NCBI GenBank assembly: GCA_964387845.1
Contig: CAYLXA010000001.1
Coordinates: 96,001 to 160,000 of the forward strand
Length of the DNA: 64,000 bases
Origin: an uncultured bacterium
Lineage (GTDB): Bacteria; Omnitrophota; Omnitrophia; Omnitrophales; Abzuiibacteriaceae
Direction of reading: 5' to 3'
In this document: piece by piece, positions 21,185 to 22,387 of the stretch
Position numbering within the stretch: position 1 is the stretch's first letter
Layout of the letters: each line of letters opens with the position of its first letter
Notes under the pieces: generated by a model
Databases searched by the model: none
The model's input: only the letters and a program-made list of their open reading frames with translations
What the model was told of the DNA's origin: nothing
Program-made: the position numbers and the translations under genes

Positions 21185-22387
21185 CTACTCCTTTCCCGTT
21201 AGAAAATAATTCATTAATTTATGGCCGTCTTTGAAACGCAAATTAGAAAGCCGTGACGAGGCTTCCGAAAACTTTTCGATTTCATCCGGCACCACATTTT
21301 TCCCCGCCACGATAAACGGTACCGAATCTTTCAAATGTGATTTCGTTTTCCATGAAGTCGACAAAAGCGGCGCAATTAAAATCCGGACTTCTTTAAATTC
21401 TTCGTAAAATTGTTTTGCGGCGCCCAAAATGTAATAATCAATCGCTTCAAGCGCCAAAATTTTCTGTTTTAAATTTCCCTGATGTGACGCGTCATCGCAG
21501 GCGCGCACATGCACACAGACAAAATCTTTTTCCTTGAGAACTTCCGTCATGGCATCGGCTTTCGATTCAAAATCAGTATCCGCTTTTCCGGTTGCGCCGG
21601 GCGCATCGACCACTGTGAGCCCGATCAAGCGGCCGAGGCCTTTCATATAATCAACGGCGGAAATCACGGCACCTGTGACACTGTGCGTTTCCGTAATCTT
21701 TGCCAAATCCGGCTTCGAACCCTGGCCCCATAGCCAGACCATGTTTGCCGGATTTTCCTGTAAATCAACGCGCACTTGATTGATTTCGTGCTTTTCAAGC
21801 AGCGATTTTGCGTCATACATGAGTTTTTTAATCAACTCGGCACCGCTACCAACCGGAAAATGCTGTTCGATCCGCTTGCCCAAGATGCGCTCAGGCGCTG
21901 TGCAGTCAGCCGAAAGTGCCTCAAACCCTTTCGCGTCTTTAATCACCGCAATGTGCCGATAGCCGGTGCCCGCAAAAAACTTCACAAACTCGCTCGACAT
22001 TTGCTTGTTCAAGAAATTAATCAACGCTTTGGCTTCTTTTGTCGAGATATCGCCCGCCGTACTGTCGGCCATCGCACCGTCTGATTCGGTGACAAGATTC
22101 ATGCGAAATGCGACCTCGTTGGGCTCGAGCTTGACTTCCAAATTCGCGGCCTCAAGCGCGCCGAGACCCGCGATTGATTTTTTCGGATTGTATCCAAAGA
22201 GCGAAAGCGCCGCCAAATATGACGCCGGCTCTCCGCGCTCGCCCAACAGGCGCACGCTGCCGACTTTTCCGCTTTTCGCGAAAAAGTTGAAGTTCGGGAG
22301 CTTGCTCATCTCGAGCGGCGTTTTTCCGTTCAGTTCTTCTGTCGGGATATCGCCGATTCCGTCCGGAATAATTAAAATGTATTTCAT
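21185..22387 (-). CDS. cofactor-independent phosphoglycerate mutase (ApgM) family protein; proposed non-orthologous homoserine kinase
   Basis: The 400-aa product belongs to the iPGM/ApgM metalloenzyme family. It sits between thrC and lysC, downstream of hom, where the proposed iPGM-like homoserine kinase family is found. Confidence 0.7.
   Translation of the reverse strand: MKYILIIPDGIGDIPTEELNGKTPLEMSKLPNFNFFAKSGKVGSVRLLGERGEPASYLAALSLFGYNPKKSIAGLGALEAANLEVKLEPNEVAFRMNLVTESDGAMADSTAGDISTKEAKALINFLNKQMSSEFVKFFAGTGYRHIAVIKDAKGFEALSADCTAPERILGKRIEQHFPVGSGAELIKKLMYDAKSLLEKHEINQVRVDLQENPANMVWLWGQGSKPDLAKITETHSVTGAVISAVDYMKGLGRLIGLTVVDAPGATGKADTDFESKADAMTEVLKEKDFVCVHVRACDDASHQGNLKQKILALEAIDYYILGAAKQFYEEFKEVRILIAPLLSTSWKTKSHLKDSVPFIVAGKNVVPDEIEKFSEASSRLSNLRFKDGHKLMNYFLTGKE

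Follow-up and report, generated by a model that had tools for sequence, protein, structure and literature searches.

How is O-phosphohomoserine made in a bacterium whose threonine operon carries a phosphoglycerate-mutase-like gene in the slot of the homoserine kinase? The question is raised by a stretch of 64,000 nucleotides from an uncultured member of the Omnitrophota (Abzuiibacteriaceae; assembly GCA_964387845.1, contig CAYLXA010000001.1, positions 96,001 to 160,000), which is referred to here as the window. The gene concerned, called X below (21185..22387), has an ATG start and encodes 400 residues; like all other features of the window discussed here, unless a plus strand is stated, it lies on the minus strand. 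The first-pass annotation of the window took it for a likely homoserine kinase of the ApgM family, in exact agreement with a genome context in which a clade of such kinases had been proposed. Our analysis indicates that X is, with little doubt, an ortholog of the homoserine kinase HomK (ThrB2/TIGR02535) that has an ApgM fold and a dismantled catalytic centre. X occupies the HomK slot of a conserved operon, and its positional orthologs in sister Omnitrophota are intact HomKs.

The clade to which the first-pass annotation appealed does exist and has moved beyond the status of a proposal. Older evidence for it came from genome context (PMC7311316, PMC9026213). TIGR02535/ThrB2, now called HomK, comprises phosphotransferases of the alkaline-phosphatase superfamily and has by now been validated by complementation: BT2402 of Bacteroides thetaiotaomicron and the diverged DET_RS08350 of Dehalococcoides mccartyi both rescue an E. 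coli thrB::kan mutant (bioRxiv 10.1101/2024.10.14.618325). A HomK is recognized in the same preprint by the catalytic Ser56, the metal ligands and the specificity residue Glu299, a position occupied by Lys in true phosphoglycerate mutases, and GapMind required conservation of the Ser, of E299 and of every metal ligand before it accepted a diverged homolog as HomK (bioRxiv 10.1101/2024.10.14.618325). The BT2402 sequence used here was recovered from gut metagenome contigs via the published cloning primer; both primers match an open reading frame (ORF) of 407 residues, which is found in loci L011, L012, L013 and L016 and has D9, S56, E299, D346 and H347 exactly as published. For the second site, the preprint names D274, H278 and H325 as ligands; the recovered protein has N, E and V at these positions, and homology to the archaeal ApgM structure 2zkt places the corresponding ligands at D302, H306 and H356.

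Family placement and catalytic centre of X

X contains the Pfam domains PF10143 (PhosphMutase, 132 bits) and PF01676 (Metalloenzyme). Against TIGR02535 it scores 391.7 bits, under the trusted cutoff of 446.3, and against NF003242 it scores 410 bits, under the trusted cutoff of 426. All intact proteins tested pass the TIGR02535 cutoff, among them BT2402 (603.9 bits), P0056 (526.8) and P0123 (490.5), while seven further degenerate proteins score 326-401 bits and every one of them fails. A separate observation concerns NF003242 (PRK04200.1) itself, an equivalog model named 'cofactor-independent phosphoglycerate mutase'. BT2402 reaches 581 bits in this model and intact Omnitrophota HomKs reach 491-547 bits; NCBI accordingly names such proteins phosphoglycerate mutase (PGM). 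HomK is probably misannotated systematically through this model.

The database names would make X a glycolytic cofactor-independent phosphoglycerate mutase, ApgM. X does pass the broad ApgM subfamily model TIGR00306 (397.9 bits, cutoff 320), the only one of these models that it passes, and it does have the ApgM fold: its AlphaFold2 model (predicted local distance difference test, pLDDT, 93.4; predicted template-modelling score, pTM, 0.90) matches archaeal ApgM 2zkt with a Foldseek E-value of 8e-35 and TM-scores of 0.82/0.86. However, X and 2zkt share only 28% identity when aligned by structure, all the ApgM equivalog models are failed (NF003104, 261.5 against 489 bits; NF003160, 161.5 against 468 bits), the Mn/Zn ligands required by every characterized enzyme of this kind are incomplete in X, and the gene stands in a threonine operon. 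The phylogenetic comparison with bona fide ApgM, which had been recommended in the first-pass annotation, was made with neighbour-joining distance trees that carry no support values and from which the catalytic columns were left out. In the broader of these trees, rooted on 2zkt, X nests deep among the HomKs and far from 2zkt, and the nearest neighbours of its group are intact Omnitrophota HomKs. X therefore falls in the HomK radiation and not with glycolytic ApgM, and a glycolytic role has next to no probability.

To locate the catalytic residues, X was aligned to 2zkt with HMMER and to BT2402 with MAFFT; the two alignments agree and are free of gaps near the motifs. The first metal site of BT2402 consists of D9, S56, D346 and H347. 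X retains Asp9 (22361..22363), as seen from both alignment and codon, and the nucleophile Ser56 (TCA, 22220-22222), which is followed by Tyr57 (the pair at 22217..22222). In place of the Asp-His pair, D346/H347 in BT2402 and part of 'GDHST' in 2zkt, it has Leu341-Leu342 (CTT TTG, 21362..21367). Across the alkaline-phosphatase superfamily, the metal that activates the nucleophile is held jointly by this Asp-His pair, the Asp of the first strand and the nucleophile itself. X lacks two of the four ligands of this metal site. The second metal site is complete: Asp298 and His302 are found in the motif R295-A-C-D298-D-A-S-H302 (21482..21505), and His351 (21335..21337) is retained by alignment and codon, in correspondence with D302, H306 and H356 of BT2402. 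The same motif opens with Arg295 (CGC, 21503-21505) at the specificity position, which is Glu299 in BT2402 and Lys in ApgM.

In total, X retains five of the seven catalytic residues and is among the least decayed members of its clade. The cap domain (PF10143, residues 74-230; 21698..22168) contains the motif R206-V-D-L-Q-E-N-P-A-N215...W218-L-W-G-Q-G223, and two residues of the former catalytic shell that lie in it, R75 and H166, are L75 and E166 in X. The residue after the nucleophile, Tyr57 in X, is Asp in intact Omnitrophota HomKs. Tyr57 and Ala60 are not counted as disqualifying, since the active HomK DET_RS08350 has Ala57 and Cys60 at these positions (the comparison with DET_RS08350 covers its N-terminal 125 residues).

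Could X nevertheless be a canonical HomK, a metal-dependent phosphotransferase that works through phospho-Ser56? Its operon context does not differ from that of intact HomKs, it shares 34% identity with BT2402 over 387 residues in the MAFFT alignment, and it scores 391.7 bits on TIGR02535. On the other hand, that score lies on the failing side of a cutoff which divides all intact from all degenerate proteins tested, and among the residues on which GapMind relied, the equivalents of D346, H347 and E299 are Leu, Leu and Arg. We therefore regard a canonical HomK as very unlikely. Of the first-pass reading, the HomK lineage and the operon slot stand, and the exact fit does not, in view of the scores below the trusted cutoffs, L341/L342 and R295.

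The degenerate clade in Omnitrophota

Is the loss of catalytic residues peculiar to the window? When one genome per species was scanned, at least 585 loci were obtained; the 80 best matches come from 80 different Omnitrophota species. In these, the gene order hom-thrC-X-lysC-cimA-valS is found in 80/80 genomes, as far as each contig reaches, with lysC after X wherever the locus reaches that far; loci whose contexts were looked up individually agree with this order. The X ortholog is degenerate in 46 of the sampled species genomes and intact in the other 34. Among the 120 closest database proteins, all from Omnitrophota and 51-92% identical to X, the catalytic residues are kept or lost in varying combinations, and only four have the full HomK pattern.

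We pooled 155 degenerate and 38 intact orthologs. With the catalytic columns removed, a distance tree places the degenerate sequences in one monophyletic group with no intact sequence inside, and their sister group consists of intact HomKs, including that of Ca. Omnitrophus fodinae. The Asp at position 341 (D346 in BT2402) is invariant in the 38 intact orthologs and lost in 155/155 degenerate ones. Of the remaining residues, the degenerate orthologs retain D298 in 103 cases, H342 in 91, S56 in 74, H351 in 66, D9 in 59, H302 in 10 and E295 in seven. Position 302 is mostly Arg (111 R and 10 K of the 155), and about half of the members have replaced the Ser nucleophile by Ala, Pro or some other residue. 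The specificity Glu, which is invariant in the 38 intact orthologs, has given way to a hypervariable position 295 (2.85 bits).

The seven catalytic residues, E295 and D57 all have zero entropy in the intact set and 1.4-2.9 bits in the degenerate set, although the mean entropy of the whole protein is similar in the two (1.22 bits in degenerate and 1.27 bits in intact orthologs). Within the degenerate clade, the columns of the former active site rank among the most variable ones, at the 56th-94th percentile. More widely, 30 of the 76 residues that are invariant in intact orthologs vary in degenerate ones, including R75, H166, S243-A-V245, T266-G267, D270-T271 and K276. No new conserved polar constellation takes the place of the lost catalytic residues in the 155 degenerate orthologs; the 19 residues that are invariant in the degenerate clade only are largely small or hydrophobic and may reflect its shallower depth.

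Catalytic loss is thus a property of the clade, and the relaxation is specific to the active site. As the orthologs lose their remaining catalytic residues in varying combinations, the function that the clade conserves cannot be the canonical HomK mechanism. Moreover, since the Asp is lost universally and the nucleophile in half of the members, a metal-assisted phospho-Ser mechanism cannot be common to them.

Degenerate homologs also occur outside the clade. The 150 most similar representatives of 50%-identity clusters comprise ∼94 canonical HomKs, in which the specificity Glu is found, and a heterogeneous group of ∼40 non-canonical ones. P0127 (L100, 1226-2434) is an independent, fully degenerate and isolated offshoot of intact Omnitrophota HomKs, and it too follows thrC. 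P0188 (L102, 8001-9245), from a metagenome-assembled genome (MAG) of the Planctomycetota, lies 17 nucleotides upstream of lysC with no hom or thrC. P0390 (L103, 4295-5518) is found in an unrelated context, between genes for an RmlD-like epimerase and an FGE-sulfatase. In the neighbour-joining tree, these three belong to a second assemblage of degenerate representatives, which is not a single family; the grouping is probably due to long-branch attraction.

Selection, coupling to thrC and the source of O-phosphohomoserine

If the catalytic centre has been dismantled, is the gene itself decaying? A relic without function would be expected to lose catalytic residues in varying combinations, as the clade does. 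However, the ratio of non-synonymous to synonymous substitution rates (dN/dS) of X is 0.053 against its 88%-identical ortholog in L002, a value that is approximate since dS is near saturation. With the same reservation, the neighbouring genes give 0.083 (hom), 0.038 (valS), 0.035 (lysC), 0.035 (cimA) and 0.021 (thrC). In addition, 68 positions are invariant across the 155 degenerate orthologs, down to ∼45-50% identity, the reading frame is intact in 46/46 degenerate species genomes, and the predicted fold is confident. X is a functional gene under strong purifying selection, and decay towards a relic is highly improbable. X thus combines the two operational marks of a pseudoenzyme, the loss of essential residues and purifying selection.

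The constraint is distributed unevenly over the protein. Entropy of the cap domain is 0.87 bits in degenerate and 1.25 bits in intact orthologs, a ratio of 0.70, which is comparable to the ratios of ThrC (0.66) and Hom (0.76), while two segments of the core have ratios of ∼1.3. The ancestral constraint thus persists in the cap, and the relaxation is confined to the catalytic core. We had at first read the cap values as a gain of constraint; this was withdrawn after normalizing to ThrC and Hom, as the degenerate clade is simply shallower.

The enzymes on either side of the kinase step were used as controls. None of the 120 ThrC residues that are invariant in lineages with intact HomK is lost in the degenerate lineages, and 75 of the 76 invariant residues of Hom are kept. 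Because the invariant residues of ThrC are all kept, O-phosphohomoserine is presumably still its substrate. The link between thrC and X has a further aspect. The 4-nucleotide overlap that the first-pass annotation noticed between the two genes is confirmed as ATGA at 22384..22387, where the stop of thrC overlaps the start of X, an arrangement of translational coupling. This overlap is found at 27/36 degenerate and 2/29 intact loci (Fisher's exact test, 1.6e-8, kinship ignored), or at 36/45 and 2/30 with a looser call of the start.

A conserved cap under strong selection would also be expected if X had become a different enzyme, with an activity other than homoserine phosphorylation and with residues outside the old centre. 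Functionally diverged relatives are known in PhpG (NF038358), the proposed threonine kinase CbiU and cobD-linked homologs, and the subclade of the window has Arg or Lys as its specificity residue, which resembles the Lys of PGM. Against a new activity, the 46 species all keep X within the threonine operon, coupled to thrC, position 295 is hypervariable, and the cleft contains no new conserved residues of a catalytic type. We give this alternative only a small chance.

Where, then, could O-phosphohomoserine come from? The first-pass annotation had found no canonical GHMP-kinase thrB, and this is borne out for the window. Apart from X, 29 ORFs of 150 residues or more look like genes, and Pfam searches of these, with 11 mostly short and largely nested ORFs set aside, found no GHMP kinase, no ThrH-type HAD protein and no second PGM in the 64 kb. 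Neither the window nor 94 related loci (1.52 Mb) contained a match at E <= 10 to a profile hidden Markov model of ThrB, and a strict regular expression for the GHMP motif gave none in 80 loci. When flanking ORFs were clustered by the degenerate or intact state of the locus, only lineage synteny and no kinase emerged; by eye, the clustered ORFs encode an ABC transporter, LpxB, GpsA, FolP, PdxJ and PilZ. The best 80 of the at least 585 matches include no second HomK-like locus from the same assembly, which is weak evidence against a close intact paralog, as MAGs are incomplete and the comparison covers these 80 matches only.

Taken together, we tentatively favour, with about as much doubt as belief, the view that X descends from HomK and now serves the threonine pathway as a pseudoenzyme, in a non-catalytic role. 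Sequence comparison shows that the Asp of the Asp-His ligand pair was lost in the ancestor of the clade, after which the rest of the catalytic shell drifted, namely the other ligands, the Ser nucleophile, the specificity Glu and ∼20 further residues that were formerly invariant. What remained were the cap, in which substrate is bound, the place in the operon and a strong purifying selection, and the gene became tightly coupled to thrC. The protein of the window represents an early stage of this process, in which Ser56, Asp9 and one complete metal site are kept and the Leu-Leu and the Arg have been gained. We infer that the clade no longer makes O-phosphohomoserine by the presumed metal-assisted phospho-serine ping-pong reaction of HomK; most likely, X would persist as a ligand-binding protein through its cap, as a partner or regulator of ThrC or aspartokinase in the threonine branch, or as both. 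X would be made in step with ThrC and is encoded next to aspartokinase, and O-phosphohomoserine would be supplied by an unlinked kinase elsewhere.

Several points weigh against a pseudoenzyme. There is no replacement kinase in the 64-kb window or the 1.52 Mb of related loci, though ThrC is fully conserved; since ThrC is so conserved, O-phosphohomoserine is still needed, and with no other kinase near the loci, X is the only candidate linked to the pathway. X keeps the Ser nucleophile among its remaining catalytic residues, so that residual or altered activity is conceivable. The statistic on the thrC overlap is not phylogenetically independent. Finally, the mechanism of HomK and its phosphate donor have only been modelled (bioRxiv 10.1101/2024.10.14.618325).

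These points lead to the alternative that X is the homoserine phosphotransferase of the pathway and acts by a non-canonical mechanism, with a single metal site, with a metal brought in by the donor, or by direct in-line transfer without a phospho-Ser intermediate. Besides the lack of a GHMP ThrB in any neighbourhood searched and the complete conservation of the invariant ThrC residues, such an enzyme would account for the purifying selection and the conserved cap; the protein of the window still has S56, D9 and D298/H302/H351, and the Arg or Lys that prevails at position 302 of the clade could stabilize phosphate without a metal. Homoserine kinase is, moreover, a step at which GapMind left thrB as an unexplained gap in 8% of prototrophs (bioRxiv 10.1101/2024.10.14.618325). 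Set against this, no catalytic residue is conserved throughout the clade, the nucleophile is replaced in about half of it, the former active site shows no new conserved polar constellation, and the lost Asp-His pair is the one that holds the nucleophile-activating metal in the superfamily. The absence of a replacement kinase near any locus, together with Ser56 and one complete metal site in X, keeps this main rival alive; we consider it rather unlikely, though deserving of serious attention. Extended to the whole degenerate clade, X included, the idea would be that a new phosphotransferase, independent of the metal site, has evolved from HomK and still phosphorylates homoserine, which we think rather improbable. 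Alternatively, X may be an obligatory non-catalytic subunit of ThrC or aspartokinase, with an undiscovered kinase in hundreds of Omnitrophota species.

Either outcome would matter beyond this operon. HomK is used by GapMind and by pipelines based on TIGRFAM/NCBIfam to fill the common 'missing thrB' gap, and our results imply that operon context and family-level homology are insufficient to assign HomK function. If the degenerate proteins are inactive, they conceal a gap in reconstructions of the threonine pathway and constitute a new pathway-linked pseudoenzyme. If they are active, HomK chemistry is independent of its presumed machinery, which would bear on both the mechanism and the phosphate donor of HomK. 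While the HomK family and its operon context were already known, the conserved clade of catalytically dismantled orthologs was not: in the literature searched, the records that mention TIGR02535 describe no degenerate members, and our search for a link between pseudoenzymes and homoserine kinase returned nothing relevant.

The operon, its neighbourhood and comparison with known systems

What surrounds X in the window? The order hom, thrC, ApgM-like gene, lysC, all co-directional, that was given in the first-pass annotation agrees with the profile matches, which place all four genes on the minus strand. The operon begins with hom (23526..24803), a homoserine dehydrogenase with a C-terminal ACT domain (NF004976, 521 bits; PF00742, PF03447, PF01842). 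It is followed by the threonine synthase gene thrC (22384..23472), which scores 322.9 bits in the equivalog model TIGR00260 (cutoff 167). As called, the thrC ORF opens at a TTG at 23472 (LRIKMSKF...). An ATG at 23460 gives MSKFAVKK, as in L002, and is likely to be the true start; the orthologs in L001 and L002 are 358 residues long. Downstream of X are lysC (19875..21098; NF005155, 569 bits), a monofunctional aspartate kinase with ACT domains, and the citramalate synthase gene cimA (18313..19872; TIGR00977, 765 bits), the final biosynthetic gene of the operon. The co-directional valS (15543..18221) lies downstream of cimA.

The spacer between X and lysC (21099..21184) folds into a long imperfect hairpin (-22.8 kcal/mol, z -2.9), with no U-tract and no Rfam match. 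The spacer of L002 (11204-11313), unrelated in sequence to that of the window, folds too (-48.3 kcal/mol, z -4.9). The hairpin may be an element of mRNA processing or stability that divides hom-thrC-X from lysC-cimA. An Rfam scan of 15000-26000 for riboswitches and leaders gave no match at E <= 0.1. Scans of the operon for sigma-70 promoters and intrinsic terminators were at the level of chance (13 against 10.4±3.7, and 18 against 15.7±4.6) and were not used.

One feature of the intact loci has no counterpart in the degenerate ones. In 14/34 loci with intact HomK, thrC and homK are separated by a gene for a standalone protein of ∼211 residues with a DFP/CoaB domain (PF04127, 128 bits), which often has start/stop overlaps with its neighbours (for example L075, 9366-10004; L084, 9366-10004; L077, 361-996; L078, 9338-9973; also L082, L088 and L098); it is found in 0 degenerate loci. 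CoaB activates its substrates with cytidine triphosphate (CTP), and PhpG of the ApgM family uses a donor activated by cytidine monophosphate (CMP). Because of these chemistries, the DFP/CoaB gene could be relevant to the phosphate donor of HomK. Phosphoenolpyruvate was once suggested as the donor by the curators of TIGRFAM.

Elsewhere in the window, a giant ORF of 3617 residues (24964-35817) lies directly upstream of hom, and a short [R/K/S]SELR motif recurs 12 times over the length of the ORF; similar giant genes of 3823 (L001) and 4307 (L002) residues occupy the equivalent place in relatives. An ORF of 1920 residues on the plus strand (48298-54060) contains eight divergent InlB B-repeat domains (PF18998, 373 bits) and a PKD-like domain, and is likely to encode a surface protein. 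A cluster of the nitrogen phosphotransferase system (PTS) type at 1451-7985 encodes LptC/LptA-like proteins, an LptB-like ABC ATPase, EIIA-2 (PtsN-like), HPr kinase, a CofD/YvcK-like protein and Enzyme I; no link between this cluster and X was found.

With which known system does X compare best? With HomK, represented by BT2402 and DET_RS08350, it shares the fold, the two-domain architecture and, as in the intact Omnitrophota HomKs, the operon slot between thrC and lysC. It differs in having Leu-Leu for Asp-His and Arg for Glu, and in the loss of shell residues (R75L, H166E). ApgM (2zkt, PH0037; 3kd8/3idd; TIGR00306) has the same fold with PF10143 and PF01676, but X is found in a non-glycolytic context, has lost two metal ligands, carries Arg instead of a near-universal Lys and is phylogenetically distant. 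The GHMP kinase ThrB and ThrH, a phosphoserine:homoserine phosphotransferase of the HAD type, fill the role proposed for X and have folds that are unrelated to it.

An analogy to the pseudoenzyme that we favour may be drawn with HisZ, an inactive paralog of histidyl-tRNA synthetase (HisRS) that regulates the ATP-phosphoribosyltransferase HisG. X, too, has lost residues essential to the enzyme from which it derives, has been retained under purifying selection and is encoded with the pathway that it would serve. The two differ in their origin, for HisZ is a paralog of an enzyme from another process, whereas X is an ortholog of the pathway's own enzyme.

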